Part shown: one piece after another, positions 349 through 19,449 of the stretch
Layout: every line of letters begins with the position of its first letter
How positions within the stretch are numbered: the first letter of the stretch is position 1
NCBI GenBank assembly: GCA_038245295.1
Contig: JBBRSP010000001.1
Span: 320,001 to 384,000 of the forward strand
From: Candidatus Binatia bacterium
GTDB taxonomy: Bacteria; Desulfobacterota; Binatia; HRBIN30
Length of the DNA: 64,000 bases
Reading direction: 5' to 3'
Program-made: the position numbers and the translations under genes
The notes under the pieces: model-generated
Seen by the model: only the letters and a program-made list of their open reading frames with translations
Database searches by the model: none
What the model was told of the DNA's origin: nothing

Positions 349-469
349 CAGGAACCCGATCACCGATGCGGCCCGACCGCGGCGGCGCCGAGTGCGCGGC
401 GTCGAATTACGATTTGAAGAAGGAATTGTTGCGCTTGGATCGCATGAGGATTAGAGGAGCAGAAGAGAC

Positions 470-835
470 ATGACGCACCGACGCTCACTGCGCATCGCGA
501 TCCTCTTGAGCCTGACGCTGCTCCTCCAGGCGGCGTACGTCGGTCCGGCGCGTGCCACCGCCAGTGTCCGCGCCATTCATTGCTGCGCCACCCGATGCCA
601 CCATATGCCGTCGCCGGCACGTTCCGCACGATGCTGCGGCGTCGAGCGCGATGAAAGCGGCCTGGCTCCAGCATCAACGATACAACCTCTGCCTGCACCG
701 GCCTTCGCGGCGCTCCTTCCTGTGATCGCTGTAACTTCGCCTCTGTCGCGCACGGGTCTACACTTCGACCCAACGGCGCGCCTGTCGGCGCGTGCCGCGC
801 CAATCTTTCTCCTCACTCTGTCCCTGCGTATCTGA
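470..835 (+). CDS. Exported Cys/His-rich leader protein (CutF/DUF2946-like architecture) upstream of the cus operon
   Basis: Purine-rich RBS region (gaggagcagaagagac), Sec-type signal ending ARA, HCCxxxCHH and CC motifs, C-terminus PIFLLTLSLRI*. Confidence 0.7.
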   Translation: MTHRRSLRIAILLSLTLLLQAAYVGPARATASVRAIHCCATRCHHMPSPARSARCCGVERDESGLAPASTIQPLPAPAFAALLPVIAVTSPLSRTGLHFDPTARLSARAAPIFLLTLSLRI

Positions 836-837
836 GA

Positions 838-959
838 TTCTCCATCCCGGTTCGGGCGTGTCGTTCGTTCGGCACTGCCCGGAGGTGTCTGTTGGCCATC
901 CAACAGGCGGCTGAACGATCCCGTTCGGTCCACGATCAGGCCAGTTTCGGCGTGGAGAG
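838..959 (+). promoter_or_regulatory. Predicted RBS-sequestering multibranch RNA structure between the leader and cusC
   Basis: TCTCCAT-C-CCGG (839-850) pairs with TCGG-C-GTGGAGA (947-958, the SD); inner hairpins ctgttgg/ccaacag and gctgaacg/cgttcggt. Confidence 0.6.
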
Positions 960-964
960 ATGTC

Positions 965-2224
965 ATGAAGCGAGTATTGACTGTCGGGTATTTGGCGGCT
1001 GCCAGCTGCTTGTGGGCGACCCATCCTGCCCAGGCCCAAGGCGACGTGTCCCTCACCCTGGCAAGCGTGATCGAAGTTGCGCGCCAACGAAATCCTGAAA
1101 TCGAGGCGGCACGGCAGCGTGCTACCGGGGCGGCGGCGGTGCCGGCTCGCGTCAGCGCGTATGACGATCCGACCTTCGCATGGGAGGCCTACAACGCGCC
1201 GGAGTCGCTGCGCATCGATCGCGCCGACAACAATATCCTCCGTGTTTCGCAACGTATCCCGTTCCCGGGGAAACGCAGCCTGGCCGGCGTTGTGGCTGAG
1301 CACGATGCCGAGGTCATGCAGCAGGATGTTACCAGCGTCGAGTTGGACGTCGTCACCGCGGTTCGCCGCGCCTACTACGATCTGTGGCTGGCGCATCGGA
1401 CACTGGATCTCTTCGAGCGCGAGAAGTTGTTGCTGCAGCGATTCAGCCACATCGCCGAGCAACGCTACGCCACCAGTGAGGTCACGCAGTCCGACGTCTT
1501 GCGGGCGCAGGTCGAACTCACCCGCACGATCAACCGGATCGCGACGCAACAGTTGGTGATCGACGCGGCACGCGCCGAGTTGAACGCGTTGCTGAGCCGA
1601 GAGCCGGATGATCCGTTGGGCGATCCCGATCCACCACCCGTACCGCGACTCGCCGCGACACCGGTAGCGTGGATGGCGCGCGCACTGAAACAGCGCCCGG
1701 AGCTGGCGGCGCAAACCGCTGTCCTTGCCCGCGAAGACAGCAGTGTCCGTCTGGCGGAGATGAACTACCTGCCGGATTTCGAGTTTACGGTCGGCCGTTT
1801 CTTCAACTACGATCGCAACGATGGCTTCGGCGCCATTGCCTCGGTCACCCTGCCGTTCGTCTACCGCTCGAAGTACGCCGCCGGCATCGCCGAAGCCAAC
1901 GCGCGTGTCGCGGCGGCACAAGCCGACCAACGCAAGCTGAGTGATCGAATCCGCCGCGAGGTGACGCAGAGCTTCGTGAGAGCCCGCACCGCACTGCTGC
2001 AGCGCGAGCTGTTCGTCACCACACACATTCCCCAGGCCGAGCAGGCGTTGCGGGTTACGGAGAGCGCGTATCAAACCGGGACGGTCGACTTCCTGGCCCT
2101 CGTCGATACCGCGCGCAGCATCGAGATGGCGCACGTCGAACACCTGCAAGCCGAGGCGGACTTCCAGAAGGCCTATGCTGATTTGGAGCGCGCCGCCGGC
2201 GTGTTCCCATCGAGCCAGCCGTGA
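965..2224 (+). CDS. cusC: TolC-family outer membrane efflux protein (CusC/CzcC-like)
   Basis: Signal peptide, OEP helical repeats (NPEIEAAR, RPELAA, AYQTGTVDFLALVD), first gene before MFP and RND. Confidence 0.85.
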   Translation: MKRVLTVGYLAAASCLWATHPAQAQGDVSLTLASVIEVARQRNPEIEAARQRATGAAAVPARVSAYDDPTFAWEAYNAPESLRIDRADNNILRVSQRIPFPGKRSLAGVVAEHDAEVMQQDVTSVELDVVTAVRRAYYDLWLAHRTLDLFEREKLLLQRFSHIAEQRYATSEVTQSDVLRAQVELTRTINRIATQQLVIDAARAELNALLSREPDDPLGDPDPPPVPRLAATPVAWMARALKQRPELAAQTAVLAREDSSVRLAEMNYLPDFEFTVGRFFNYDRNDGFGAIASVTLPFVYRSKYAAGIAEANARVAAAQADQRKLSDRIRREVTQSFVRARTALLQRELFVTTHIPQAEQALRVTESAYQTGTVDFLALVDTARSIEMAHVEHLQAEADFQKAYADLERAAGVFPSSQP

Positions 2225-2235
2225 GGCGAGGAGTC

Positions 2236-3474
2236 ATGATCATGCGCGTACGTCGGTTGTTCGTAAGTATCGTCCTGCTTCTGGTCGCCTTTGGTGCGGG
2301 TGTATTTGTTCCGCGGTCGTGGCTGTCGGTTCCATCAACGCCGGACACTCTCGGGTCGGTCACGAAGAAGGAACGTTACCAGTGTGCCATGCACCCGCAG
2401 ATCGTTCGCGACCACCCGGGTAACTGTCCAATCTGTCAGATGACACTGCAACGCGTCGAGGACGGCGAAGTGCTGCCAACTCCGGCCGCGTCTTCCAACG
2501 GCAAGTCGAAGATCCTCTTCTATCGTCACCCGATGCGGGCGGACGTGACGTCCCCCGTCCCCGCGGTCGACGAGATGGGCATGGCCTACATTCCGGTGCG
2601 CGAGGAAGATGTTGGCGGCGGCACAGGAGGGGACGTTCCGGACCACGCGCCATTCACGCTCTCCGTGCAGCGCCAGCAACTCATCGGTGTAACTCGAACA
2701 AAGCTCGAACGGCGCAACCTCGATGTCGAGATTCGCGCCGTCGGCAAGGTTGCGTATGACCCGCAGCTCTATCAGGCGATCAGCGAATACCGTGAGGCGC
2801 GCAAGGCCAATGCGGGAATCGCCGACAGCACTGTCCCTGAGGCTCACGCCGGGGCGAACGCGATGGTGCGCTCGTCGGCGCTGAAGCTGCGACAGATGGG
2901 GATCTCCGAGCAGCAACTGCGCGAGCTGACCGAGAGCGGCGCCTCACCGACCAACCTGTTGCTGCCGGGCAAAAGTGCTTGGATCTATGCCCAGGTTTAC
3001 GAATACGAAATGGACAGCGTGCACCCGGGACAGACGATCGAAGTCACAACACCAGCTCTCCCGGGTCGTACCTTCACCGCCAAGATTGTGGCCGTTGATG
3101 CAATCCTCAATGCCGCGACGCGCACGGTGCGGGTGCGAGCCCTGGTGCAGACTCCGGATACGGTGCTGCGCCCCGAGACCTTCGTGCACGTGAAGATTCG
3201 CGTCCCGTTGGGGGAGAAACTAGCAGTGCCCGAAGACGCGGTTCTCGATACCGGCGAGCACCAGGTTGTCTTTGTCGTCATGGGCGAAGGACATTTCGAG
3301 CCGCGCTCCGTGCAACTAGGTCGAGAAGCGCAGGGCTATTACGAGGTCTTGTCCGGAATCGAGGTCGGTGAAGAAGTCGTCACTTCGGCCAACTTCCTGA
3401 TTGATTCGGAATCGCGCTTTCGCTCGGCCCTCGCCGCTTTTGCCGCGAAACCGCCGGCTGCCCACGCGCACTGA
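2236..3474 (+). CDS. cusB: Efflux RND periplasmic adaptor (CusB family) with N-terminal heavy-metal-binding domain
   Basis: YQCAMHPQIVRDHPGNCPICQMTL, YRHPM...DEMGMAYIPV, C-terminal VVTSANFLIDSES; RBS gaggag before ATG 2236. Confidence 0.9.
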   Translation: MIMRVRRLFVSIVLLLVAFGAGVFVPRSWLSVPSTPDTLGSVTKKERYQCAMHPQIVRDHPGNCPICQMTLQRVEDGEVLPTPAASSNGKSKILFYRHPMRADVTSPVPAVDEMGMAYIPVREEDVGGGTGGDVPDHAPFTLSVQRQQLIGVTRTKLERRNLDVEIRAVGKVAYDPQLYQAISEYREARKANAGIADSTVPEAHAGANAMVRSSALKLRQMGISEQQLRELTESGASPTNLLLPGKSAWIYAQVYEYEMDSVHPGQTIEVTTPALPGRTFTAKIVAVDAILNAATRTVRVRALVQTPDTVLRPETFVHVKIRVPLGEKLAVPEDAVLDTGEHQVVFVVMGEGHFEPRSVQLGREAQGYYEVLSGIEVGEEVVTSANFLIDSESRFRSALAAFAAKPPAAHAH

Positions 3475-3485
3475 GGAGAACGGCG

Positions 3486-6400
3486 ATGGTGGAACGAATC
3501 ATCGAGTTCAGCGCGCACAACAAGTTCCTGGTGTTGTTGCTCACCGCCGTGGCGTTGGTTGGAGCGACCTGGACGGTCCGTACGATCCCGCTCGACGCGA
3601 TTCCCGATCTCTCCGATACACAAGTGATTGTCTACTCGCGCTGGGATCGCAGCCCGGATCTGATCGAGGATCAGGTTACATATCCGATCGTCTCGGCGTT
3701 ACTCGGCGCACCCAAGATCAAGGTTGTCCGCGGCTTCTCCGATTTCGGTTACTCTTACGTCTACGTCATCTTCCAGGACGGCACCGACCTTTACTGGGCG
3801 CGTGCCCGGGTGCTCGAATATCTCAGCAAGATCCTGCCGCGTTTGCCCGAGGGGGTGCAGACCGAGCTCGGCCCCGACGCCACCAGCGTCGGCTGGGTGT
3901 ATCAGTACGCTCTCACCGATCATTCCGGGACGCACGATCTCGCCGAGCTGCGCAGCCTGCAAGACTGGTATCTGCGCTACCATCTACAAGCCGTGCCGGG
4001 TGTGGCCGAGGTGGCGGCGGTGGGTGGGTTCGTCAAGCAGTATCAGGTCAATGTCGATCCGCAGCTACTGCTGGCGTACAATATCCCGCTGACCCAGGTG
4101 CTCGACGCGATTCGCCGCGGCAACAAGGAGGTTGGCGGTCGCGTTCTCGAGTTCGCCGGCACCGAATACATGGTGCGCGGGCGCGGCTACATCAAGTCGA
4201 TCGACGACATCGAGAAGATTGTCGTGTCGACCGATCCGTCGTCGGGCACGCCGGTACAGGTCAAACAGGTTGCGAAGGTGGCGCTGGGGCCGGACATGCG
4301 CCGCGGCGTGGCCGACCTGGACGGGCAGGGCGACACCGTCGGTGGCATCGTTGTCATGCGTCACGGCGAGAATGCGCTCCAGGTCATCGAGCGTGTCAAA
4401 GCGAAGCTCGAAGAGCTCAAACCCAGCCTGCCGGAGGGGGTGGAGATCATTCCGACCTACGACCGTTCCGGCCTCATCGAACACTCCATCGATACGTTGC
4501 TCCATTCTCTGCGCGAGGAGATGATCATCGTCAGCTTCGTGATCTTGCTCTTCCTGTGGCACTTCCCCTCGGCGATCATTCCGATCATCACGATTCCTGT
4601 CTCGGTATTCCTGGCGTTCATCCCGCTCTATCTGATGGGCTTGAGCTCGAACATCATGTCGCTGTCCGGCATCGCCATCTCGATCGGTGTGCTCGTCGAT
4701 GGAGCTATCGTCGAGGTCGAGAATGCCTACAAGCGGCTTGAAGAGTGGATCGAGGGTGGCCGGCAGGGCGACTTCCATCTCGTCCGACTGCAGGCCCTCA
4801 AAGAAGTCGGACCGTCGGTCTTCTTCTCACTGCTGGTGATTGCGATCGCCTTCTTGCCGGTGTTCACGCTGGTCGATCAGGAAGGCCGTCTCTTCAAGCC
4901 ACTCGCCTACTCGAAGAACCTGGCGATGGCGCTCGCGGCTGTCCTCGCGATCACCCTCGATCCCGCATTGCGCATGATGTTCACGCGCATGGACTACGCA
5001 CACTTTCGACCGCGTTGGCTCGCATCGATTGTCAACACGGTGACGGTCGGGCGCTACTACACCGAGGAACGCCACCCGATCAGTCGCGTCTTGTTTGCCG
5101 TCTATGAGCCCGTGTGTCGGTTTGTGTTGCGGCATCGTGTTCTAACGCTGGTGCTTGCGCTGGGCTTGGTGGCATCCACCGTCCCCGTCTATTTCAAGCT
5201 CGGTTCGGAGTTCATGCCGCCGCTCAACGAAGGTGCCTTTCTCTACATGCCGACGGCGTTGCCGGGCATGTCGGTCACTGAGGCGCAGCGCATCCTGCAA
5301 ATCCAGGACAAGATCATCCGCAGCTTCCCGGAAGTGGAGACGGTGTTCGGCAAGGCGGGTAGAGCGACGTCGCCCACCGACCCGGCGCCGTTCTCGATGG
5401 TCGAGACGACGATCATGCTGAAGCCCGAGTCGACGTGGCGGCCGATGCGGCGCTGGTACTCCGACTGGCCGGCTCCGCTGCGCTGGTTGTTTTCGTCGGT
5501 GACGCCGGAGCACATGACGTTTACCGAGCTGCAAGACGACATGGACGCCAAGCTGCGCTTCCCCGGCATCCCGAACATCTGGACCATGCCGATCAAGAAC
5601 CGCATCGACATGCTGTCGACCGGCGTGCGCACGCCGATCGGCATCAAGATCCTCGGCGCCGACCTCAAAGTGATCCAGAAAGTCGGCGAGGATCTCGAAG
5701 GGATCATTCGCGAGATTCCGGGCACGCGAAATGTCATCGCCGAGCGCACCGCCGGTGGGTACTACGTCGACTTCACGCTGAATCGCGACGAGCTGGCACG
5801 CTACGGCCTGTCGATTGAAGACGGACAGACGGTGATCATGTCGGCGATCGGCGGCGAGAACATCACCAATACGATCGAGGGGCGCGAGCGTTACCCGGTG
5901 AACGTCCGCTACGGTCGCGAATTCCGTGACAACATCGATGAGCTGCGGCGCGTCCTGGTGCCGACGGCGTCGGGGGCGCAGGTGCCGCTGGCCCAACTGG
6001 CCGACATCAAATTCTCGGAAGGCCCGTCGATGATTCGCAGCGAGAACGGCCACCTCGCCGGCTACGTGTACGTCGATATGGACAGCACCCGTGATCTTGG
6101 CGGGTATGTGCACGAAGCGAAGAAGCGTGTCGCCAAAGCCCTGCAGCTGCCCAAGGGCTACAGCCTGGTGTGGAGCGGCCAATACGAGAATCTGGCGCGG
6201 GTGCGCGAGCGCTTGAAGATGGTGATCCCGTTGACGCTCTTCCTGATCGCGCTGCTGCTGTACATGAACACCAAATCGGTAGTGAAGGCCGGTATCGTCA
6301 TGCTCGCCGTGCCGTTCTCGCTGATCGGCGCCATCTGGTTGCTCTACGTGCTCGGATACAACACGTCGATTGCCGTCTGGGTCGGCATGATCGCCCTCAT

Positions 6401-6776
6401 GGGTCTTGATGCCGAGACCGGCGTCTTCATGCTGCTGTTTCTGGATCTCGCCTACGACGAACGTGTCCGCAAAGGCACGATGCGAACCTGGACGGATCTC
6501 GAGGAAGCGATCCTGCACGGCGCCGTGAAGCGTGTGCGCCCGAAGATGATGACCGTGATGGCGTCCTTCTTCGGCCTGCTGCCGATCATGTGGTCGATCG
6601 GCGCCGGGTCGGACGTAATGAAACGCATCGCCGCGCCGATGGTAGGTGGGCTTTTCACCTCGTTCCTTCTCGAGCTGCTCGTCTACCCGGTCATCTACTC
6701 GATCTGGAAGTGGCGTTTCGAAATGAAAGGCGGCAGCGTAATCCCACAGCCGGCCTTGATCGGCACGCCCCGCTAG
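3486..6776 (+). CDS. cusA: CusA/SilA-family Cu(I)/Ag(I) RND efflux transporter
   Basis: DAIPDLSDTQVIV, GPDATSVGWVYQY, Met triad (EFMPPLNEG, PFSMVET, RIDML), KRIAAPMVGG. Confidence 0.95.
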   Translation: MVERIIEFSAHNKFLVLLLTAVALVGATWTVRTIPLDAIPDLSDTQVIVYSRWDRSPDLIEDQVTYPIVSALLGAPKIKVVRGFSDFGYSYVYVIFQDGTDLYWARARVLEYLSKILPRLPEGVQTELGPDATSVGWVYQYALTDHSGTHDLAELRSLQDWYLRYHLQAVPGVAEVAAVGGFVKQYQVNVDPQLLLAYNIPLTQVLDAIRRGNKEVGGRVLEFAGTEYMVRGRGYIKSIDDIEKIVVSTDPSSGTPVQVKQVAKVALGPDMRRGVADLDGQGDTVGGIVVMRHGENALQVIERVKAKLEELKPSLPEGVEIIPTYDRSGLIEHSIDTLLHSLREEMIIVSFVILLFLWHFPSAIIPIITIPVSVFLAFIPLYLMGLSSNIMSLSGIAISIGVLVDGAIVEVENAYKRLEEWIEGGRQGDFHLVRLQALKEVGPSVFFSLLVIAIAFLPVFTLVDQEGRLFKPLAYSKNLAMALAAVLAITLDPALRMMFTRMDYAHFRPRWLASIVNTVTVGRYYTEERHPISRVLFAVYEPVCRFVLRHRVLTLVLALGLVASTVPVYFKLGSEFMPPLNEGAFLYMPTALPGMSVTEAQRILQIQDKIIRSFPEVETVFGKAGRATSPTDPAPFSMVETTIMLKPESTWRPMRRWYSDWPAPLRWLFSSVTPEHMTFTELQDDMDAKLRFPGIPNIWTMPIKNRIDMLSTGVRTPIGIKILGADLKVIQKVGEDLEGIIREIPGTRNVIAERTAGGYYVDFTLNRDELARYGLSIEDGQTVIMSAIGGENITNTIEGRERYPVNVRYGREFRDNIDELRRVLVPTASGAQVPLAQLADIKFSEGPSMIRSENGHLAGYVYVDMDSTRDLGGYVHEAKKRVAKALQLPKGYSLVWSGQYENLARVRERLKMVIPLTLFLIALLLYMNTKSVVKAGIVMLAVPFSLIGAIWLLYVLGYNTSIAVWVGMIALMGLDAETGVFMLLFLDLAYDERVRKGTMRTWTDLEEAILHGAVKRVRPKMMTVMASFFGLLPIMWSIGAGSDVMKRIAAPMVGGLFTSFLLELLVYPVIYSIWKWRFEMKGGSVIPQPALIGTPR

Positions 6777-6935
6777 CACTGCTCGTTTCTATGCCCCGGC
6801 GCGGAACAACAATTTGGGAATTGTTGGCCGGCGTGTGGACGGCGTATGGCTTGCGGCCTGACGTGCCCGGTGGCTGGCGATGCCCGCGCGAGTAGCTGGA
6901 GCCTCGTCTCCTTGACGGCTCGAGAACGCTCTCGT

Positions 6936-9260
6936 ATGGCTCCTTCGGTGTCGGAGAGAGCGCCTGAAGTCTATCCAGAACCTCCGACGACGCTGACGCC
7001 GCCGCATTCGCCCTTGGCGGACGAGAATCCACTCGAGGCAGCCTTGAGCATCGGCCTGGCGACGTTCATGTCCACGAGTGCGCTCATTCTGCTGAAGCTG
7101 CTCGTAACAAAGACGTTTTCTGTTCCCACGTTGAACTTCGGTGGTCGCGGTCCGCAGCTCCTTTCGCTTGCCCAGGGTGTGCTCGTCACACCAGGGGTTG
7201 TAGCCTTGATCACCGTGGGCGCAGTCCTCCTCGGGCGATTCTATGCACGATTGGTTGGAGAGGGGTCGCTGGGATCCATCCTGACCGCCTCACTCGCCGG
7301 CATCGCCGGCGCGATCGCCATGGTTCCGGTGCTCGGACGAGAGGCCGACAGCACGCGGATGCCGTTGGTTATCCTGATCCCGATCCTGCTGGGCATTGCC
7401 GCACTGGTTTGTCATCAGAGTCGACTGGTCACGCGCGGGGTCCTCTTCAGCGCCTGTTTGCCCGGGGCACTGTTCGCGTACAGTCTTGCGTCGCTGTTGG
7501 ACAGTGAAGGAATCACCGCCGCCTTTCCGCTGAACTCGGAGCTGGCGCGACAAGGAGTTGCTGCCCTGGGCGGGCTCCTCATCGGGCACCTTGTTGCCTT
7601 CCTTCTTCCGACGGTCATTGGGGTGCTCTTGCTGTCCGGCTGGGGGCAGCAGTGGGCATGGCGCAGCCTTCTTGCTTTTGGCCTCATGGGTGCGGCCGCG
7701 TGGATGGTATTGATCCTGGACAATATCCTCGAGCCGCTGCTCGCTTTCCCTGGCCTCTTCGATTTTCGTTTCGCCATCGAGCTGCTGGCGATCCTCATGG
7801 GCGCGGCGGGTGTCGGCCTGTTGTTGAGTCGCGGCCGGGCGCAAGCAGGGGCCGCTGGCGTTGCCATCGCACTGGCGCTAGCCGCCGTCCCACTTCCGAT
7901 CACCCCAAAGGCAGCAATGTATTCTTCGGGAATGGCCATCGACGTGTGGGTTCGGCGTTCCTACTCGGAAGTCTTCGACCGCGACGGGGATGGAGCATCG
8001 ACCTTGTTCGGGGAGGGGGATTGCGATGATCACAATGCCGCCATCCGTCCCGGCCGCCCCGACGTCCCGTTCAACGGCATCGATGAAAACTGTTTGGCGG
8101 GCGACCTGCAGCAGGCGGATGTACCCCCGAATCGGTGGCAGATCACCCATCCGGCATCAGCCAACCACAGCATTCTTCTGGTCACGGTCGATACGCTACG
8201 CTCCGACATCGTGTTCGGAGCAAATGGGACAATGCCGCGTTTGCGCAGCTTCGCCCAACGCCACGGTGGATTCGACAATGCTCACGCTCTCGGCGGCGCC
8301 ACCGCTTTTGGCCTTCTCAATCTCTTCTACACGGAAGAGATCTCACCCTACGCTCTGCCGCGTCATCGCAACCTTCCGAGTTATATGAAGGAGGCGGGCT
8401 ATCGAACACTGTGCATCTACCCGACCTACCGCGCCGCATCCGTGGATGTGCCTACGACGATCTTTCAGGAATGCGATCTGGCCGAGGTTGTTGCCGGCGA
8501 CGACAAGGCGCGCATCCCTTCCGGGCAGGAAGTGATCGAGCGGGCGCTCTTGCGCATGAATCAAATTGCTGGGAACAAGTTCGTCTGGATACAGCTCGAC
8601 GACCTTCACGACTACGTCGTGTACCGTCCCGGTAAAGGCTACAAAAGCTACTACTTGTTCGATGGCCTTTCGTCGCTGGGCTCGTATCAGACCCTACGAT
8701 CCTACTTGCTCGCCAAGTATCGCGAGCGCGCTGCCTATCTCGACCGAGTCTTGGATGAACAGATCCTGTCTCGCTTCGAGAACGACCCCGCATTCGCCGA
8801 CACTCTTCTGATCTTGACCGGTGATCACGGCGAGGAGTTCCTGGAGCACGGCGGCATCTTTCATGGCTCAACTCTTTACGAAGAGCTGACGCGTGTCCCG
8901 ATCGTCTTCTCGGATGGCCAGGCCGGAGAGATCTACCATCACCCAATGGCTCATCAGGACGCCGTCAAGAGCATGATGGCGTACGCCGGCTTCGAGCGTT
9001 TTCCCGAGCCGGCAACAACCTTGCGCACACCGCCCAGCGACGACCGTGTCCTCGTCGGATTGATGGTCAGCAACGGCCTCTTCTCTGTACGCCGCGGCAG
9101 GTACAAACTCATTCTGAACTTCTTCACCGGCGCTGAGATGTTGTTCGACCTCGTCGACGATCCAGGGGAGACACGCGACCGGAGCGGTGATCTTCCGCAG
9201 GTTGCGGCTGAGTTTAGGACGCTGGCCGACATCGAAGAGCGCCGGATCATCAAGCGCTAG
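6936..9260 (+). CDS. Multi-pass membrane protein with a C-terminal sulfatase/alkaline-phosphatase-superfamily domain and a MopE-like DxDGDG-DCDD-NGIDENC motif
   Basis: About 9 hydrophobic helices; ILLVTVDTLRSD, TGDHGEEFLEHGGIFHG, LYEELTRVP, LFDLVDDPGE; start uncertain (6846 or 6936). Confidence 0.8.
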   Translation: MAPSVSERAPEVYPEPPTTLTPPHSPLADENPLEAALSIGLATFMSTSALILLKLLVTKTFSVPTLNFGGRGPQLLSLAQGVLVTPGVVALITVGAVLLGRFYARLVGEGSLGSILTASLAGIAGAIAMVPVLGREADSTRMPLVILIPILLGIAALVCHQSRLVTRGVLFSACLPGALFAYSLASLLDSEGITAAFPLNSELARQGVAALGGLLIGHLVAFLLPTVIGVLLLSGWGQQWAWRSLLAFGLMGAAAWMVLILDNILEPLLAFPGLFDFRFAIELLAILMGAAGVGLLLSRGRAQAGAAGVAIALALAAVPLPITPKAAMYSSGMAIDVWVRRSYSEVFDRDGDGASTLFGEGDCDDHNAAIRPGRPDVPFNGIDENCLAGDLQQADVPPNRWQITHPASANHSILLVTVDTLRSDIVFGANGTMPRLRSFAQRHGGFDNAHALGGATAFGLLNLFYTEEISPYALPRHRNLPSYMKEAGYRTLCIYPTYRAASVDVPTTIFQECDLAEVVAGDDKARIPSGQEVIERALLRMNQIAGNKFVWIQLDDLHDYVVYRPGKGYKSYYLFDGLSSLGSYQTLRSYLLAKYRERAAYLDRVLDEQILSRFENDPAFADTLLILTGDHGEEFLEHGGIFHGSTLYEELTRVPIVFSDGQAGEIYHHPMAHQDAVKSMMAYAGFERFPEPATTLRTPPSDDRVLVGLMVSNGLFSVRRGRYKLILNFFTGAEMLFDLVDDPGETRDRSGDLPQVAAEFRTLADIEERRIIKR

Positions 9261-9680
9261 GTATAACCCGGCTGTGGGCATCGTGGCGACGATCCGCCAG
9301 CGTCTGGGCGTGGGAACCGCGACCAACCTCAAGGCTCGTCGCTCAAGTCGAGCTCGGCGCCGGGAAACGCCGGTGGCATGGCGAGGCGTGCAAGCCAGGC
9401 CTGAAACTCGGTAAGCAGAAGGGACGACCTGGCCATCTCCCCGGCCAGTTGGTTGGCGCGTTTCTGCAAGGTCGCGAGCTCATCCGGATTGTCGGCGGCA
9501 ACGTTGTTGTTCATTGGGCGCGAAGGCCAAGACGACCGCTATCCACGCAAGGTTGCGATGCGCCTTCCTAGTCTATGGAAGGCGCCCCGCCGCCATCGTT
9601 GAAGCGTGCCTTCCCTGACACCCGCAGCGGTTGGCGTCTCCCTTGCAGTACTCTTAAGTAGAGCCACAGGAGGGCCTACC

Positions 9681-11132
9681 ATGACGCGCCTCAGTCGTCG
9701 CGATGTTCTCAAGCTCGGCGGGTTGGCGCTGACAGCACCATACCTCGGAAGTCCTCGTTGGGCGCGCGGGTTGACCGCCGTCGGGTCGTTTCCTGTTCCG
9801 CCTCGTTTGCCTCTGATCCGCCCCGAGCCCGGATTGGTCGAGGCTGAGTTGAGCGCGGCATGGACGCAGTCTGCCGTCGCCGGCACGACGGCGCGGCTGC
9901 AGACCTACAACGGTAGTTTCCCGGGCCCGATCCTGCGCCTGCGCGAAGGCGAACGGGTTCGCCTCTGGTTCACCAACAACCTGGGTGAGCCGAGCAACTT
10001 GCACATGCATGGACTGCATGTGCCGCCGAGCATCGATAATCCATTTCTCTCGGTCTCACCGGGCGAGACCACCGTCTACGAATTCGACGTTCCGGCGAAT
10101 TCGGCGGGCACGTACTGGTATCATCCGCATCTGCACATGCGCGTCGCCCGCCAGCTCTTTGGTGGGCTTGCTGGCGTCATCGTCGTCGAGGGCCGCATGG
10201 ACCGGCAGTTGCGCCGGCGCGGTGCCGACGAATACGTCGTCGTGCTCAAGGACCTTTCCCTGGTCAACGGCGCGCCGGAAGCCCATAACCCGTTCGATTG
10301 GATGAGCGGCAAGGAAGGCAATCTCCTGCTGGTGAACGGTGCCGTGCAGCCCGTGCTGGTGCCGCGCACGAGCCTGCTGCGCCTGCGGTTGCTAAACGCC
10401 AGCAACGCGCGTTACTACCGCCTCGCCCTGGAAGGCCATCCGCTGTTTCTGATCGCCACCGACGGCGGCTTCATCGACCAGCCGATCGAGCTCAATGAGT
10501 TGCTTCTCGCTCCGGGCGAACGGGCCGACGTGCTGGTACAGCTCAATACGGCCGGAAACTTCCGTCTCCTCAATCTTCCCTATGATCGCGGCAGTGGTCA
10601 CGGGATGGGTGGAATGCACGGCGGCGGTCACATGGGTGGCATGCATGGAGGTAGCACGGGAAGCACGGCGGCCCCGGATGTCCTCATGACCATCGCGGCT
10701 GGTGAAAACCCACCACGATCGCTTCCCTCACGTGTAGGCCTGGTCGAGCCTCTGGCCCCGGCACCAGGCGACGTCCACCGTCGCCTGGTGCTCGGCGAGG
10801 CGATGATGGGATTCCAGTTCTACCTCAACGGGCGGACCTTCGACGAGGCACGCATCGACTTCCAGGGACGGCTAGGAGATCTCGAGGTGTGGGAGATCGA
10901 CAATCGCACCGGCATGGATCACCCGATGCATCTCCATACATATCCCTTCCAGGTTTTGTCTCGGAATGGCGTCCCCGAGGCCCTGCGCGCCTGGAAAGAT
11001 GTGGTCAACGTGAGGGCAGGGGAGGTTGTTCGCATCGCCGTGCCGCTTCGGGATTTCACCGGCAAGACGGTCTACCACTGCCACATCGTCGAACACGAAG
11101 ATCGCGGCATGATGGGCGTTCTTGCGGTGTAG
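9681..11132 (+). CDS. Tat-exported three-domain multicopper oxidase (CueO/laccase-like)
   Basis: SRRDVLK twin-arginine signal; HMHGLH, WYHPHLH, HPMHLH, YHCHIVEHEDRGMM; Gly/Met/His-rich insert; RBS aggagg. Confidence 0.92.
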   Translation: MTRLSRRDVLKLGGLALTAPYLGSPRWARGLTAVGSFPVPPRLPLIRPEPGLVEAELSAAWTQSAVAGTTARLQTYNGSFPGPILRLREGERVRLWFTNNLGEPSNLHMHGLHVPPSIDNPFLSVSPGETTVYEFDVPANSAGTYWYHPHLHMRVARQLFGGLAGVIVVEGRMDRQLRRRGADEYVVVLKDLSLVNGAPEAHNPFDWMSGKEGNLLLVNGAVQPVLVPRTSLLRLRLLNASNARYYRLALEGHPLFLIATDGGFIDQPIELNELLLAPGERADVLVQLNTAGNFRLLNLPYDRGSGHGMGGMHGGGHMGGMHGGSTGSTAAPDVLMTIAAGENPPRSLPSRVGLVEPLAPAPGDVHRRLVLGEAMMGFQFYLNGRTFDEARIDFQGRLGDLEVWEIDNRTGMDHPMHLHTYPFQVLSRNGVPEALRAWKDVVNVRAGEVVRIAVPLRDFTGKTVYHCHIVEHEDRGMMGVLAV

Positions 11133-11152
11133 TCGGCAAGGAGAACGAACAA

Positions 11153-11536
11153 GTGAGCGACCATAGGGCGCAAGACAGGCTCTTCGCTGTCGGCGACTAC
11201 TTTGGGGGAGGACTCATCGGCGGCACGACTGCGGCGGCTGTGCGAGCCCTGATCGTGCCGGAAACCGACATGGTGTTGGCAATGCTCATCGGGATGACGG
11301 TCGGTATGATCCTGCACCTGGGGATCGGGCTGTTGCTGACGCCGTTGCTGGGCATGTTTCACGCGATGATTCCGGGCAGTCTGATCGGGATGTACGGCGG
11401 GATGATGTTCGCGATGCGCGACAGTATGCAGGGGCCTGCGATGTCCAAAAGCCACGCCGTCGGCGTGGGTGTTGTCTTTGGGCTCCTGATGATTGTCGTC
11501 GTGCGACTCTACGATCGCGGCCTCCGCGGCGCCTAA
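11153..11536 (+). CDS. Small Met-rich membrane protein (about 4 TM)
   Basis: RBS aaggag before GTG; hydrophobic helices with MLIGMTVGM and GMYGGMMFAM. Confidence 0.7.
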   Translation: MSDHRAQDRLFAVGDYFGGGLIGGTTAAAVRALIVPETDMVLAMLIGMTVGMILHLGIGLLLTPLLGMFHAMIPGSLIGMYGGMMFAMRDSMQGPAMSKSHAVGVGVVFGLLMIVVVRLYDRGLRGA

Positions 11537-12052
11537 GCAACGGCTGTTCGCGGAGATGGACGGACATTGCCTCATGCTCGCGGCCGGTACGGGTGCCGAC
11601 TTCGCGCACTTCCCCGCCGGGCTGACGATCAAGACGATCGACATCAGCCCAGGCATGATCGCGCGCGGCGGGGCACGGGCCGCGATGTATGATGGCTCAC
11701 TCACGCTGCAGGTCATTGACGCGCAAGCCCTGCAGTTTGCCGACGCGAGCTTCGATTCGGTGGTCACCTCCTGCACATTTTGTTCGGTCCCCGATCCACT
11801 ACGCCGGTTGCGTGAGCTCTATCGCTGCTTGAAGCCAGGCGGCCGGTTGCTGATGTTCGAGCACGTGCGCAGCCGGGTCGGGCCGATCGCGTTGATGCAG
11901 GATGTCATGACGTTCATCACCCGTCGCGTCGTTGGTCCAGATATGAACCGTGATAGGTCAGCAACGTTGTGCGCGCCGGATTCGAGCTCTGCCGAGAGGA
12001 CAACGTCTACCTCGACGTGGTGAACTCCATTCGCGCCCGACGGCCAAACTAG
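11530..12052 (+). pseudogene. Class I SAM-dependent methyltransferase, 5'-truncated and frameshifted
   Basis: LAAGTG, IDISPGM, SFDSVV..TFCSVPDP, LKPGGRLLMFEHV; frame break at gat-ag-gtc (~11955), other frame continues VSNVVRAGF...NVYLDVVNSIRARRPN*. Confidence 0.75.
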
Positions 12053-12147
12053 GGCTGCCGGGCTTCGTCGCCTTGTCCTCCCGCGCCCGAACTTAGCCAC
12101 TTGTTGGAATGACATTTGCGCGTAGGGTTGGGCAAAGGAGCCGAAAA

Positions 12148-12540
12148 ATGTCCATCTCACACAAATGTCGTACGGCGATCGGGTATAGCCTCGGGGTTGT
12201 CGGCCTCGTAGCTCTCACGAGTATCGGTTCGGGGAGCGCCGCGTTGGCGCAGGGTGCGGGGCCGGTGACCGACGCCAACGTGGTCGAGCGCGTAGTCAAT
12301 ATGAAAACCCCCGCCGATCACACGGCCATTGCCGACTACTATCAGGCGAAGGCCGCGACCGCTGCCACCGAGGTGACGCGGCACGAGGCGATGGTGAAGT
12401 CGTACGAGAACATGGGCAACCCGGCCAAGCAGATGGCGGCCCACTGCGGGCGTCTCCTCGACGCTGCCAAGAAGGAACATGCCGAGTATGAGTCCTTGGC
12501 CAAGGACCATGCCGCCATGGCGGCGGCCGCGAAGAAGTAG
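12148..12540 (+). CDS. Secreted helical His/Met-containing protein
   Basis: RBS aaaggag, signal ending ALA, ADHTAIADYY...HEAM...MAAHC...HAAM. Confidence 0.8.
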   Translation: MSISHKCRTAIGYSLGVVGLVALTSIGSGSAALAQGAGPVTDANVVERVVNMKTPADHTAIADYYQAKAATAATEVTRHEAMVKSYENMGNPAKQMAAHCGRLLDAAKKEHAEYESLAKDHAAMAAAAKK

Positions 12541-12808
12541 CTGAGTCAAGCGACGCACACGATGGGGCACGGCTCACGAAGAGCGAGCCGTGCCGGTCGT
12601 CGCCCCGGGCTGCGTAACTCCACGCGCGTAGTAGTGCGTTCTTACTATCCATTCTGACACTTGCAATAAGGGGGCATGGCTGACGTCGGTCTCGGGAACT
12701 GTGATGAACAGCGATCGCTGGCCCTCTTCACCTCCTGCCAGGCGCTCAACCGCAGCGACGCTGGTGGAACGAATCGCGCGCGGTAGACATCAACAACGGA
12801 GGTAGACC

Positions 12809-13192
12809 ATGAGACGACCACTTCAGAGAATAGCTCTCTACGCCATGGGAGGACTCCTCTTCGGCGCAACCGCGCATGCCGCGCCGGTCGCTCCACAATT
12901 GAGCGCGCACCTTGTCGATCCGGCCGCCAAGGCGCAGAAGCAGGCGGCGACCGTCGAGGTGAAGGTCAGCGGCGTGAAGATCATCGACCCGGCATCGGCC
13001 AAGGAGAAGCCACGCCCTGGGCAAGGTCATCTGCACTACCAGGTTGACGACGGTCCGATCATTGCCACGACGGCAACCAAGTTGAGTTTTCACGGCCTCA
13101 AGACCGGCAAGCATTCGATCAAGGTCATGCTCGCCGGCAACGATCATCAGGCGCTCGGGCCGGAAGCGACCCTGAACGTCGACATCCCCTGA
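12809..13192 (+). CDS. Secreted beta-rich protein, DUF4399/DUF6130-like (putative metal binding)
   Basis: RBS ggagg, signal ending AHA, GHLHYQVD...HSIKVMLAGNDH. Confidence 0.75.
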   Translation: MRRPLQRIALYAMGGLLFGATAHAAPVAPQLSAHLVDPAAKAQKQAATVEVKVSGVKIIDPASAKEKPRPGQGHLHYQVDDGPIIATTATKLSFHGLKTGKHSIKVMLAGNDHQALGPEATLNVDIP

Positions 13193-13210
13193 GCAAGGAG
13201 GAACTGCCAA

Positions 13211-13576
13211 ATGGGACGATCTGAGATCGCTGAAAGGTCGGCAAGCCTCGAGCACGGAAGCCGCGCGGCAGGCCTCGAAAGTCGGCGTGTTTGGCCGGAC
13301 CCGAACACGCCGCGATGCAGCCTCCACAGTCCGTTGCCGGGCCGTGAGCTGGCCTCCATCATTCATTTCATCAGCTGCCCGTACTGCCAGCGTACCTTCG
13401 ATGTGTTTGCCGCGCTGTGGTGCGCCCACCAGGAGGATCAGCCGTCGAAGGTTTGTCCGCACTGCGACCGTTGCCTCTGTGCGCACCCCGCCTACGCAGA
13501 ACCTCACTTTTGGAGGGACTCGCCGGCGGTTTTTCATGACCGCGGATTCACACGTTTGTTCCTGTTCTATCTCTGA
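13211..13576 (+). CDS. Small Cys-rich (zinc-ribbon-like) protein
   Basis: RBS aaggagg; CPYC...WCAH...CPHCDRCLC. Confidence 0.7.
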   Translation: MGRSEIAERSASLEHGSRAAGLESRRVWPDPNTPRCSLHSPLPGRELASIIHFISCPYCQRTFDVFAALWCAHQEDQPSKVCPHCDRCLCAHPAYAEPHFWRDSPAVFHDRGFTRLFLFYL

Positions 13577-13655
13577 GTCCGCGACTCCACGGTCGTGTCA
13601 TTTGAACCGGCACCGTGCTTGACGATCTCCCGAGCAGCGCTTAAGGGAGCCCGCA

Positions 13656-14048
13656 GTGAAGCGTACTATCACCAGTCTCCTGTTGCTGGCGTTGTTCGCG
13701 GCCGACCTGCTGCTTTGTCCTTGTGTCGGGACGGCGACGGCATCGACGCCGCAATCACGACGCAAGGCAGACGCCCACGAGTGCTGCCCCGCCGCCGACG
13801 AATCCGGACGAGGGCACGGGGCGGTCCCCCAGCATCATCCTGGCTGCGATCATTGCGATCATGGCGGTGCCTCGCTCACCGCCGCGAGCAACGCCGCCTC
13901 GTTCCAGGCGCCGCAATTGTGGGCGATGTCACCTGTGATATCGGCTGTCCCGTTTCTACCTGCTTCCGTCCCTTCGGCCTTCGGAGATCGAATCCCGAAG
14001 CCTCCCCCGTTGCCACTGACGCACCGCACGTGCGTCTTGCTGATTTGA
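13656..14048 (+). CDS. Second exported Cys/His-rich leader protein, upstream of tolC-mco-copA
   Basis: RBS aaggga + GTG, hydrophobic N-terminus, CPC, HECC, HHPGCDHCDH, C-terminus PKPPPLPLTHRTCVLLI*. Confidence 0.72.
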   Translation: MKRTITSLLLLALFAADLLLCPCVGTATASTPQSRRKADAHECCPAADESGRGHGAVPQHHPGCDHCDHGGASLTAASNAASFQAPQLWAMSPVISAVPFLPASVPSAFGDRIPKPPPLPLTHRTCVLLI

Positions 14049-14051
14049 CCA

Positions 14052-14150
14052 CCTCTTCCATCTGACCCGTCTCTCTTAATTGAGACGTGCGGGATTTCTC
14101 GCGTTTGATCGGCCATACCGCCGCGGCGCGAGCGGTCTGTTTGGAAGAGG
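14052..14150 (+). promoter_or_regulatory. Predicted RBS-sequestering RNA structure between leader 2 and tolC
   Basis: CCTCTTCCA (14052-14060) is the exact reverse complement of TGGAAGAGG (14142-14150, overlapping the SD); inner stems cgtctc/gagacg and ctcgcg/cgcgag. Confidence 0.65.
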
Positions 14151-14157
14151 AGCGTCC

Positions 14158-15612
14158 ATGTTCGGAAAAGCTAGATTGGGCTCGACGACCCGCGGCGGCT
14201 GGTGGCTGTGCCTCGTGACACTCGCTGGGTGTGCGAACATCCAACCCCAGGGCGGATTCAGCGATGTGCAACAACTGATCGCCGAGCGCATGCAGGAACC
14301 CATCTATTGGAGCCAGGGAACGGCCGCCGACGCCGAAGTGCAGCAACGTATCGGCGCCATGCTTGGGGAGGCTCTCACGTCCGACACGGCGGTGCAGATC
14401 GCGTTGCTCAACAACCGCGGCCTCCAGGCCACCTACGAGGACCTTGGCGTGGCGCAGGCCGACCTGGTCCAGGCTGGCCTGCTGAAGAATCCGGTGTTCA
14501 GTGTGGAACGCCGCTTCAGCGGCCAAGCGGCGGAATTTCACATCATCCAGGATTTCCTCGATGCGTTCCTGATCCCGCTGCGCAAGCGGGCGGCGCAAGC
14601 TGCGTTTGATGCGGAGAAGGCGCGCGTCGCCGAGGCCATCCTGAACCTGGCCACCGAGGTGCGCGCCACGTTCTACACCCTTCAAGGAGCGCAGCAGCTG
14701 GTCGAGATGCGGCGCTCGGTGGTGCGCAGCACCGAGGCATCGGCTGAGGCGGCTGACGCGCTGCATACGGCCGGTAACATCAGTGAGCTAGACTGGCGCA
14801 TTGAGCAGAAGGCGGGGACGCAGGCGCGACTCGATCTTGCGACGGCCGAGGACAGTGTCGTTCAGCATCGCGAACGCCTGAATGCGCTCCTCGGTCTTTG
14901 GGGTGAGCAAACGCAATGGAAGGTCAGCGTGCATCTGCCCGAGTTGCCAGCGGGAGAGATCCAACCGCAAGGGCTGGAGGCCCTCGCTGTTGAGCAGCGA
15001 CTTGATCTGGCCGCCGGTCGTCAGGGCATCGTGCTGGCAGCCGAGAGTCTCGGGCTGACGAGCGTGACGCGCTTCGTGCCGGATGTGAACATCGGCCTGC
15101 ACTCCGAACGCGAGGCGGACGGCTTCGACTCGCTCGGCCCAAGCTTGGATCTCGCCATCCCGATCTTCGATCAGGGTCAGGCCAAGATGGCGCGCAGCGC
15201 TGCGTTGCTGCGCCAGCGCCAGGAGCGTTATGTGGCGTTGGGCATCGAGGTTCGTTCGCAGGTGCGTGCCGCCTACGCCCGAATGTCGGCTGCCGGCAGG
15301 CGCGCCAACTTCTACCGCCGCACCGTTCTGCCGCTGCATGCGGAGATCCTCCATCACACCCAGCTGCACTACAACGCCATGCAAGCCGGCGTCTTCCAGT
15401 TGCTGCTGGCGCGGCAGGCCGAGATCGATGCCGGGCGCGAGTACATTGAGACCCTGCGCGACTATTGGATTGCGCGCGCCGAGTTGGAACGCGCCGTTGG
15501 CGGCCGACTTGCCGGGTTGACGATGAGTCCAGCGGAGCCGCCTGCAGGGGCTGAGACGCCCCCGGTGCCAAGTCCGCCGCACGAACATCAGCACCATGGA
15601 GATCAATCATGA
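14158..15612 (+). CDS. TolC-family outer membrane lipoprotein (copper resistance-associated)
   Basis: Lipobox LAGC, AVQIALLNNRGLQA, YNAMQAGVFQLL, His-rich tail HEHQHHG. Confidence 0.88.
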   Translation: MFGKARLGSTTRGGWWLCLVTLAGCANIQPQGGFSDVQQLIAERMQEPIYWSQGTAADAEVQQRIGAMLGEALTSDTAVQIALLNNRGLQATYEDLGVAQADLVQAGLLKNPVFSVERRFSGQAAEFHIIQDFLDAFLIPLRKRAAQAAFDAEKARVAEAILNLATEVRATFYTLQGAQQLVEMRRSVVRSTEASAEAADALHTAGNISELDWRIEQKAGTQARLDLATAEDSVVQHRERLNALLGLWGEQTQWKVSVHLPELPAGEIQPQGLEALAVEQRLDLAAGRQGIVLAAESLGLTSVTRFVPDVNIGLHSEREADGFDSLGPSLDLAIPIFDQGQAKMARSAALLRQRQERYVALGIEVRSQVRAAYARMSAAGRRANFYRRTVLPLHAEILHHTQLHYNAMQAGVFQLLLARQAEIDAGREYIETLRDYWIARAELERAVGGRLAGLTMSPAEPPAGAETPPVPSPPHEHQHHGDQS

Positions 15613-16955
15613 AGTCGAACAAGCAGGGCATGCCACGTAGAGACTTCCTCGTTTCAGGAGCCGCGGCCATGGCTGGTGGAGCTCTTCTTCTCGGCGGCGT
15701 TGGTCAAACGGCGATAGCTCAGGCGACGCCGGAACCCCCAAAGGATCCTGAAGCGGCGCGGCAAGCATCAGGCATGGCCGGGCAAGACTATGCCCCCGTC
15801 ATTGTACCCAACGGTGCCAAATTGCCGTGGAAGATGATCGACGGCGTCAAAGTGTTCCACTTGATCGCGGAGGAGGTTGATCACGAGTTCGCCCCGGGCC
15901 TGAAGGCAACGTGTTGGGGCTACAACGGTGCCGTGCACGGTCCGCTAATCGAAGCGGTCGAAGGTGATCGCGTGCGGATCTATGTGACGAACCGCCTGTC
16001 CGCGTCGACCACGGTTCACTGGCATGGTCTCCTCGTGCCCAGCGGTATGGACGGCGTCGGCGGTCTCAATCAGCGCGCGATCAGACCGGGCGAGACCTTC
16101 AAATACGAGTTCACCCTTATCCAGCACGGGACGCTGATGTACCACTCGCATCACGACGAGATGACACAGATCGCCCTAGGCATGACTGGCATGTTTGTCG
16201 TGCATCCGCGTCAGCGGCCGGACCCCAAAATCGATCGCGACTTCGCGATCATGTTGCACGAGTGGCGTATCGACGCCGGAGCGACTCGCCCAAATCCGAA
16301 TGAGATGACGGAGTTCAACATCCTGACGATGAACGGACGAGTGTTCCCAGGCACCTCGCCTCTGGTGGCCCGCAAGGGGGATCGCGTGCGCATCCGTCTC
16401 GGCAATCTGGGGCCGATGGATCATCATCCGATCCACCTGCACGGACATGTGTTCACCCTGGTGGCGACGGATGGCGGAGAAGTTCCGGCATCGGCGCGGC
16501 ACCCCGAAACAACGGTACTCGTGCCGGTAGGCAGTACTCGCACGGTGGAGCTCGTGGCGACCGAGGGTGACTGGGCGATGCACTGTCACATGACCCATCA
16601 CGTCATGAACCAGATGGGTCACAAGTTTCCCAACATGATCGGTGTGAAGCCGGGTAGCCTCGACGCGAAGGTTGGTCAGGTCCTGCCGAGCTACATGACC
16701 ATGGGGCAGGACGGCATGGGTGATATGGGCGGGATGAAGATGGCGGTGCCGAAGAACAGCATCGCAATGGTCGGTGGTCGTGGGCCGTTCGACAACATTA
16801 CGATGGGCGGGATGTTTACGATTCTCAAGGTGCGCGGCAGCCTTGCCGACTACAACAGCGCGACCGAGTGGTACCCGAACCCGCCCGGGACCGTTGCTAA
16901 CCTGGCGACGGCCGAGCAACTGCGGGCCGACGGCATCGTCACCGATCGAAAATGA
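15609..16955 (+). CDS. Tat-exported two-domain multicopper oxidase with Met-rich tail
   Basis: PRRDFL signal; [27 protein letters not shown] overlap with tolC. Confidence 0.9.

Positions 16956-16986: not shown

Positions 16987-19449
<2,463 letters not shown>

Follow-up and report, generated by a model that had tools for sequence, protein, structure and literature searches.

The 64,000-nt stretch analyzed here (the window) spans positions 320,001 to 384,000 of contig JBBRSP010000001.1 from a Candidatus Binatia bacterium (assembly GCA_038245295.1) and carries two copper-export operons, each opening with an OEP/TolC-family gene. An earlier note on this DNA had pointed to a small open reading frame (ORF) directly in front of each TolC gene and proposed that both ORFs encode exported, copper-sensing leader peptides that switch on translation of the operon behind them. 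The two ORFs indeed end 129 nt (leader 1) and 109 nt (leader 2) before the OEP/TolC genes and, judged by comparison with their relatives, are genuine leader genes. The genes downstream of both leaders are copper-export genes by their sequence matches (Table 1); the best PDB match of the resistance-nodulation-division (RND) pump in the first operon is Escherichia coli CusA (1042 bits, vs 489 for ZneA).

Table 1 Features of the two leader-operon units in the window (SD, Shine-Dalgarno sequence; anti-SD, tract complementary to it; aa, amino acids).
Feature	Position	Strand	Description and evidence
Possible promoter of leader 1	429-457	+	weak, sigma-70-like; TTG-type -35 at 429-434, 17-nt spacer, imperfect -10 at 452-457; read from sequence
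SD-like element	454-459	+	overlaps possible leader 1 promoter
Leader 1	470-835	+	121 aa, ATG; putative export signal, then CC-x3-C-x11-CC cluster, linker rich in Ala/Pro, RAAP at -14..-11, and tail L-R-I-stop
Anti-SD 1	839-845	+	core 7-bp strand; helix extendable into stop codon; folding
Intergenic multi-hairpin spacer	846-951	+	brings anti-SD 1 and SD together; folding, z -3.70
Sequestered SD of cusC-like gene	952-958	+	folding
OEP/TolC-family outer-membrane factor (cusC-like)	965-2224	+	PF02321
CusB-like adaptor with heavy-metal-binding domain	2221-3474	+	PF16576, PF19335
CusA-type RND pump	3486-6776	+	TIGR00914 above cut-off
Possible promoter of leader 2	13619-13647	+	TTGACG at 13619-13624, 17-nt spacer, imperfect -10 ending 8 nt before GTG; read from sequence
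Leader 2	13656-14048	+	130 aa, GTG; putative export signal, CxC, CC, His-rich CxxC, PPP at -15..-13, tail C-V-L-L-I-stop
Anti-SD 2	14052-14060	+	9 bp; folding
Sequestered SD of second TolC-family gene	14142-14150	+	folding, z -3.49
OEP/TolC-family protein, lipoprotein-like N-terminus	14158-15612	+	PF02321
Tat-type (twin-arginine translocation) multicopper oxidase	15609-16955	+	profile search
Copper-translocating P1B ATPase, YHS and HMBD domains	16987-19449	+	TIGR01511, 598.7 bits vs cut-off 397

Each leader has a basic N-terminus, a hydrophobic segment (12-residue Kyte-Doolittle mean of 2.4 for leader 1 and 2.6 for leader 2) and Ala-x-Ala sites, read by eye as a putative Sec signal. Counted from the C-terminus, the Cys residues lie at 83, 82, 78, 66 and 65 in leader 1 and at 109, 107, 87, 86, 66 and 63 in leader 2, plus one at about 4-5. 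The distances of 65 and 63 residues given previously for the last Cys are therefore right for leader 1, and right for leader 2 as the last Cys of the cluster, not of the protein. Neither leader is matched by a Pfam or NCBIfam model. An AlphaFold2 model of leader 1 is of low confidence (predicted template modelling score 0.35), with residues 1-60 ordered (per-residue confidence, pLDDT, 75-94) and a low-complexity, disordered C-terminal half (pLDDT about 50). In the ESM Atlas both leaders fall in unnamed clusters (0.96), followed by clusters of DUF2946 and of DUF8199 (0.93-0.94), the latter (PF26622) being the nearest family there; we take these hits as leads only. The leaders had been described as paralogous-looking, which is plausible but distant, because they share 26% identity and their family profiles align over the Cys region alone (hhalign 94.7%, 32 columns). 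A loose filter on hydrophobic segment, Cys spacing and tail passes 7 of the 27,140 genome ORFs of 95-260 codons, among which leaders 1 and 2 alone have a duplex of about -16 kcal/mol between the sequence after the stop and the next SD, before a TolC gene. Profile searches of the same genome gave no third paralogue of this kind among the matches listed.

In order to follow the leaders across the window's class, we used the TolC proteins as queries against 201 genomes, of which 75 and 29 had a match, and analyzed 78 loci (49 cusC-type and 29 of the second type; two further loci were left out). The upstream ORFs were filtered for a hydrophobic segment and at least two Cys, without use of the tail, and 47 passed. 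Removal of two other proteins (L028, L058) and one leader with an altered tail (L042) gave a set of 44 loci, both window leaders included, with 26 leaders of family 1 (that of leader 1) and 18 of family 2 (that of leader 2). L066, whose downstream start is probably wrong (which counts against the result), was kept in the duplex tests and excluded from the modelling of ribosome positions. In addition, a family-2 profile matched 455 clusters at E ≤ 0.001 among 1.84 billion representatives, and the top 150 matches, minus one 1,036-aa protein, are the 149 database relatives referred to below.

Within the 26 relatives of leader 1, C38, C39, C55, C56 and P111 are invariant. In 44/44 loci, 60-72 residues separate the last cluster Cys from the C-terminus (62-67 in 38/44), so the spacing between Cys and stop that the earlier note had drawn from two sequences is indeed conserved. 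A tail of the form [LFI]-x-[LIV]-stop closes 41 of the 47 filter-passing ORFs, vs 4 of 122 other upstream ORFs, and the conserved core over the 44 loci is Pro-x-[FLY]-L...L-x-[LIV]-stop. Leu at -3 is present in 42/44 class loci and in 91% of the 149 database relatives, vs 374 of 3,710 ordinary genes; its codons are mixed (CTC 20, CTG 13, CTT 6, TTG 3), which indicates selection at the protein level. Thus the terminal pattern P-[IL]-x3-T-x2-L-[RL]-I read from the two window leaders holds for their termini and for Leu(-3), and does not hold in general for Thr at -6 (17/44), Pro at -11 (24/44) or the last residue, more often Leu (25/44) than Ile (13/44). The terminal Leu codon is CTC in 24 of the 25 class leaders that end in Leu, vs 60 CTC to 68 CTG at the gene ends of this genome, which may reflect selection at the RNA level or a need to avoid start codons that overlap the stop. 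The last sense codon ends in a pyrimidine in all but one of the 44 loci, and Arg(-2) is encoded by CGA in 8/15.

Upstream of the leader start, TANNNT occurs at a distance of 4-11 nt in 19/44 homologues, vs 0/44 control starts, and TTG at 33-40 nt in 28/44, vs 3 in controls; on these motifs, most of the leader transcripts look leaderless and sigma-70-type. The -10 element of leader 2 is so near its GTG as to suggest a leaderless or near-leaderless mRNA. A consensus promoter scan called no promoter at leader 1 or leader 2. For window positions 13500-15700 no RNA holder is on record, which has no bearing on expression. Some leaders are damaged: L042 has the altered tail mentioned above, and L092 has a frame break in its 5' half with the downstream layout kept. 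At L089 and L091, family-2 leaders (CxC/CC/CxxC) precede cusC-type tolC genes, which elsewhere are paired with family-1 leaders, and this suggests from the sequences that leader cassettes have been exchanged between operons.

The post-stop tract of each window leader pairs with the SD of the next gene upon folding (z = -3.70 and -3.49), and for either helix none of the 200 shuffles folds as stably as the native sequence, in agreement with the anti-SD proposed before. For this analysis, SDs were located with a generic 16S anti-SD, and helices were computed. With a longer upstream window, the SD behind leader 1 can alternatively pair with the Phe-Leu-Leu codons of that leader. In a duplex test of the 20 nt after the stop against the 20 nt before the next start, which like the other pairing analyses is equilibrium modelling, the mean was -15.9 kcal/mol for the 44 loci vs -9.9 for 373 ordinary gene pairs of this genome. 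The signal is maximal at the stop codon, nucleotides +1 to +10 after it being those that hide the next SD. The pairing is specific to the partner: own partners reach -17.2 vs -14.1 for swapped ones at the 28 cusC-type loci (0/20,000 permutations), -13.8 vs -11.3 at the 16 loci of the second type (5/20,000), and -15.7 vs -12.4 at 27 loci dereplicated at 40% leader identity (0/50,000). The own partner is the single best in 5/44 loci only, which is expected, given how similar the SDs are to one another. When the full sequences are folded, the post-stop tract is the main pairing partner of the SD in 25/44 loci. Where an additional small gene for an exported product separates leader and tolC, it is the SD of that gene to which, in most inspected cases, the post-stop tract is complementary. 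We also considered an intrinsic terminator or attenuator and rejected it, terminator-like hits in or near the leaders occurring at about the shuffle frequency.

Which ribosome position would free the SD was modelled at 43 loci with a ribosome footprint assumed to block pairing as far as 15 nt beyond the P-site codon. A gain in SD accessibility above 0.2 is found in 0-1 loci at codons -14 to -8, with none opening at -14 to -12, in 4-7 at codons -7 to -3, in 16 at codon -2 and in 25 at codon -1, as the earlier proposal that a ribosome at the last codons frees the tolC ribosome-binding site predicts. The opening for leader 1 is 0.61 at -2 and 0.81 at -1. In most leaders, a Pro motif sits 10-13 codons before the stop, and since the SD is freed in the model at the last two codons only, a polyproline stall of the CutF type cannot switch these operons on. 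For these long-tail leaders, either a metal-gated pause at termination or a release from arrest is therefore needed.

The same genome also encodes a canonical DUF2946 leader (L210:1489-1947, minus strand; G000 C4:132115-132450), in which RAPP stands close to the C-terminus and, counted by hand, follows CxxC by 45 residues. Here the anti-SD is part of the coding sequence, 26-30 nt ahead of where the stop codon ends, and the SD opens from 0.30 to 0.66 with the ribosome at -5, in reach of a ribosome stalled at RAPP. The next gene encodes an exported protein that has neither an annotation nor a Pfam match, is at least 460 aa long and looks like an uptake porin. In short-tail proteobacterial leaders, the anti-SD is within the last five codons plus stop in 3/6, the choice of start being doubtful in the other three. 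Over these few cases, the modelled position of the anti-SD seems to follow the expected pause site.

At the 49 cusC-type loci, 34 have a leader or a damaged copy (28 by the filter and 6 more by profile), 14 have a divergent gene for an extracytoplasmic function (ECF) sigma factor, and one is truncated. Leader and divergent ECF sigma are never found together (0/49; the loci are kin and thus not independent, and two ECF loci have <600 nt of flank), so that the leader probably replaces a dedicated regulator. The SDs at the ECF loci are weaker (mean -4.1 vs -7.7). These loci are L029, L036, L039, L046, L047, L049, L054, L087, L088, L095-L097, L100 and L102; at L039 the ECF gene is followed by one for a probable anti-sigma factor, a membrane protein carrying CxxC-type motifs, and several of the loci share a GTTAC...CGTA promoter-like motif directly before a tolC start without SD. 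From their sequence context, these sigma factors possibly form an unstudied metal-responsive ECF group. In the window's genome, which is 96.6% complete, no CueR, CsoR/RcnR or CusR-type model scored over its cut-off (best CusR-type, 239.6 vs 279.2).

To our knowledge, two copper-sensing leaders have been worked out so far, and in both the stall occurs on a proline motif right at the C-terminus. According to the published accounts, CutF of Rhodobacter capsulatus ends in PPPRL and stalls on PPP with copper (PMC8456105; bioRxiv 10.1101/2025.02.05.636593); the PPP is two residues from the end and 45 residues after CxxxC, and both CutF and CopL function in cis only (PMC9973294). The window leaders resemble CutF-cutO in being small, putatively Sec-exported Cys leaders in cis, with a copper-detoxification gene next and a computed stem-loop over its SD. 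The same source describes a collection of 5,334 CutF-like proteins in which PP is allowed anywhere in the last 15 residues and some members have no Pro motif, with OEP/TolC as the commonest neighbor and CusA and CusB also listed (PMC9973294). Consequently, the suggestion of the earlier note that the RND/TolC/ATPase targets help to mark an undescribed class is not supported. Both window leaders are within the limits of that collection for length (<150 aa; 121 and 130) and for a same-strand neighbor (<1,000 nt; 129 and 109 nt). With PP in the last 15 residues required as well, leader 2 still qualifies through its PPP, as do 27/44 class leaders and 104/149 relatives on this point, and leader 1, with RAAP, does not. 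PP in the last 7 residues is found in 0/44 class leaders and 2/149 relatives. In contrast to CutF, the Pro motif here precedes the stop by 10-13 codons, some 64 residues separate the Cys cluster from the C-terminus, a conserved L-x-[LIV]-stop tail is present, and the window helix is long-range (about 100 nt) and spans several hairpins; the CutF geometry, a terminal polyproline stall some 45 residues past the Cys that opens a stem-loop, is thus not that of the class leaders. The long-tail group may already be contained in the 29 sequence similarity network clusters of CutF-like proteins, although no account of the tail is given in the text of PMC9973294 that was consulted.

CruR (Bp2923) of Bordetella pertussis needs CxxC and RAPP 45 residues apart; its RAPP is three residues from the end, copper turns the importer off via Rho, and the signal is dispensable (PMC9426467). 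RAPP and RGPP are described as robust arrest cores (PMC12992588). The window leaders share with CruR and the DUF2946 family (PF11162) the upstream ORF, a putative export signal and a Cys motif at a fixed spacing, and differ in heading exporters and in having neither a DUF2946 match nor RAPP about three residues from the end. The previous argument that the terminus differs from RAPP needs revision, since an RAPP-like motif is present, displaced 10-13 codons upstream. Neither window leader matches PF11162, and at E ≤ 1 it matches 0/26 family-1 and 4/18 family-2 members; of the 149 relatives of leader 2, 28 match DUF2946 at E ≤ 0.05 and 4 over the cut-off, the profile ending at the Pro motif in several of them.

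Three other groups are comparable. The HYC_CC_PP family (NCBIfam NF047658), whose model is confirmed, was found at 23 loci in 20 of 81 genomes of another phylum (Bacteroidota). Judged by these members, it has CC 68-79 residues from the end, usually Pro-Pro, [FYWL]-x-[IL]-stop in 12/23, and a position upstream of CusA-type, HMA/HMBD or TonB-receptor genes, but most of its loci have no SD or anti-SD. NF047658 matches 0/26 family-1 leaders, 0/18 family-2 leaders and 0/53 proteins, and nothing in the window's own genome. Stop-dependent arrest peptides are exported leaders on which the ribosome arrests when the A site holds the stop codon, in dependence on residues -1 and -3 (PMC10987492). The conserved -1 and -3 residues and the anti-SD position of the class leaders fit such a mode of action, whereas these peptides end in Pro or Lys, precede secA or secDF and are not metal sensors. 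Finally, short-tail leaders weakly matching CopL/CzcI (NF033807, NF045614) occupy the same position before homologous proteobacterial tolC operons, and differ in having Cys 43-48 residues from the end and PP in the last 7. In sum, the leaders are CutF-like in outline, are not DUF2946 or HYC_CC_PP members by profile, and do not have the CutF geometry. In the literature searched (most subscription journals lie outside its coverage), we found no study of this tail or of HYC_CC_PP/DUF8199, and neither a metal-gated termination pause nor activation by release for a metal sensor.

A wider survey covered the best 80 of 279 named loci with second-type TolC, leaders being picked by eye within 1.5 kb. 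Among these 80 we found 27 long-tail leaders, in records titled as Planctomycetota groups, Binatia, Rokubacteria/Methylomirabilota, delta-, alpha- and gammaproteobacteria, Acidobacteria, Rhodothermales and Oligoflexia, and 7 short-tail leaders of the CutF/CopL/CzcI type, all proteobacterial. Nine long-tail leaders (L116, L118, L123, L127, L130, L132, L135, L137 and L139) have a His-rich region and a single Cys 59-75 residues from the end, and by this composition possibly sense another metal. A plasmid search gave only distant TolC proteins (≤31% identity) among the matches listed.

We propose that each leader would act in cis, in the manner of CutF and CruR, to gate translation of the copper-export operon behind it. 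The peptide would be exported co-translationally, so that its Cys cluster would be periplasmic when the ribosome reaches the stop. Cu(I) or Ag(I) binding would take the place of disulfide-driven folding and weaken the pull on the chain, and the weaker pull would prolong a pause that the Pro...L-x-[LIV]-stop tail sets at termination. During this pause, the ribosome would hold the anti-SD, and tolC translation would begin; without metal, the ribosome would depart fast, the helix would re-form, and the peptide would be degraded. A copper-gated translational switch, by this mechanism or by release from an arrest, is likely in our view. That a copper-prolonged pause at termination is what switches on export translation is a tentative choice, in which we infer metal sensing, export timing and pausing.

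Several observations weigh against such a pause. RNAalifold found no consensus helix in 26 intergenic regions, because spacer length and helix register vary, and the cross-pairing permutations, which favor own partners, were used instead. For 24 of the 27 long-tail loci of the wider survey, mostly from other phyla (two class duplicates and one locus without a called next gene were removed), the mean duplex is -10.4, near background, with 8/24 at or below -12 and automatic starts that are partly wrong; the post-stop anti-SD is therefore firm for the window's class only. In leader 2, the SD opens to 0.50 at -2 and only 0.24 at -1. The nonpolar C-terminus could be a mere degradation signal. The Cys-to-end spacing of about 64 residues is far above the 45 of CutF, and lengthening CruR by five residues strongly reduced its copper response (PMC9426467). 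The presence of a conserved Pro/RAGP-like motif 10-13 codons upstream fits an arrest there. Standard deviations of Cys-to-end vs Cys-to-Pro distance are 1.69 vs 1.94 in family 1, but 2.02 vs 1.64 in family 2 and 2.80 vs 2.56 in 121 database relatives, so spacing variance does not separate a sensor calibrated to the Pro motif from one calibrated to the end.

An unlikely alternative is a release-activated switch, in which RAGP, RAAP or PP would cause a CruR-type arrest that copper relieves: the arrested state would be OFF, and running on to the stop would melt the helix (ON). R-[AGSN]-[GAPS]-P, its Arg 12-20 residues ahead of the C-terminus, occurs in 12/26 family-1 leaders (8 exactly at -14; background 0), four of them with RAGP, and all 26 have this motif or PP. 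RAGP is the SecM motif (PMC10987492), and copper relieves the arrest of CruR, which occurs at RAPP (PMC9426467; PMC12992588). The Cys-to-Pro distance averages 51-53 residues, nearer to the 45 of CruR than 64 is. As the Pro motif is 10-13 codons before the stop, a ribosome arrested there cannot reach the anti-SD, consistent with the closed state of all modelled loci at codons -14 to -12. However, RAPP or RGPP is found in 1/44 class leaders and 3/149 relatives only, both R-[AGSN]-[GAPS]-P and PP are missing in 7/18 family-2 leaders and 28/149 relatives, normal termination would open a long-range helix only briefly, and the conserved Leu(-3) is left unexplained. It is similarly doubtful that the tail of 10-13 codons acts as a logic inverter, giving a CruR-like sensor the opposite output, with release switching on efflux.

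Translational coupling without copper sensing is also improbable. Here, the leader would monitor secretion or the periplasmic disulfide state, or set an expression level, and its tail would be a degron for periplasmic PDZ proteases. The paired Cys could report oxidative folding, as in the disulfide model (bioRxiv 2025.02.05.636593), nonpolar C-termini are known as degradation signals (PMC9426467), and several distant members keep one cluster Cys plus His. Against it, the neighbors in the class are copper or heavy-metal genes, the scanned HYC_CC_PP neighbors are heavy-metal-binding, RND or TonB-receptor genes, the leader stands in for a dedicated ECF regulator, and the characterized relatives respond to copper via Cys motifs (PMC9973294; PMC9426467). 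We give still less credit to a trans-acting product, a stable chaperone or buffer for metal in the periplasm, with the helix merely coupling its synthesis to the operon. The many Cys/His ligands and the ordered residues 1-60 of the model suit such a role, but the disordered C-terminal half is nevertheless fixed in length, and CutF and CopL act in cis only. Chance ORFs with chance GC-rich pairing are already refuted by conservation: high-GC DNA does produce many long ORFs and stable folds, and 30/373 ordinary gene pairs reach -15.9 kcal/mol, but the invariant Cys and Pro in 26 diverged relatives, the 455 profile hits and the partner-specific pairing are not matters of chance.

Between the two operons (window 6846-13576) are genes for a sulfatase-like membrane protein that has a Cu-binding_MopE motif, another Tat multicopper oxidase (9606-11132), a methyltransferase whose gene looks disrupted at the 5' end (11493-12023) and two small exported proteins containing His/Met (12109-12540 and 12809-13192), and a small Cys-rich ORF ending at 13576. 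Convergent with the second operon, 19772-21724 (minus strand) encodes a fusion of a cytochrome c domain, a trypsin-like protease and a PDZ domain, by its domains a possible degrader of hydrophobic-tailed leaders. A multi-haem cytochrome c protein with several CxxCH motifs is encoded at 29906-31888.

These results offer a testable function for several hundred small proteins that carry no annotation (family 2 by itself accounts for 455 clusters), and probably also for HYC_CC_PP; the long-tail plan recurs in records of several phyla and in that unstudied family. Two undescribed mechanisms are possible for the group, whose new elements are the distinct geometry and the exchange of leader and ECF sigma, the target class being already published. 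In the window's class, the data suggest that the same copper pump can be controlled interchangeably by a leader peptide or by an ECF sigma factor. If release from arrest proves true, one sensor chemistry would act in opposite directions on uptake genes, whose leaders have a short tail with the anti-SD under the arrest site, and on export genes, whose leaders have a long tail and the anti-SD behind the stop, and would do so within one cell, as this genome carries both leader types.

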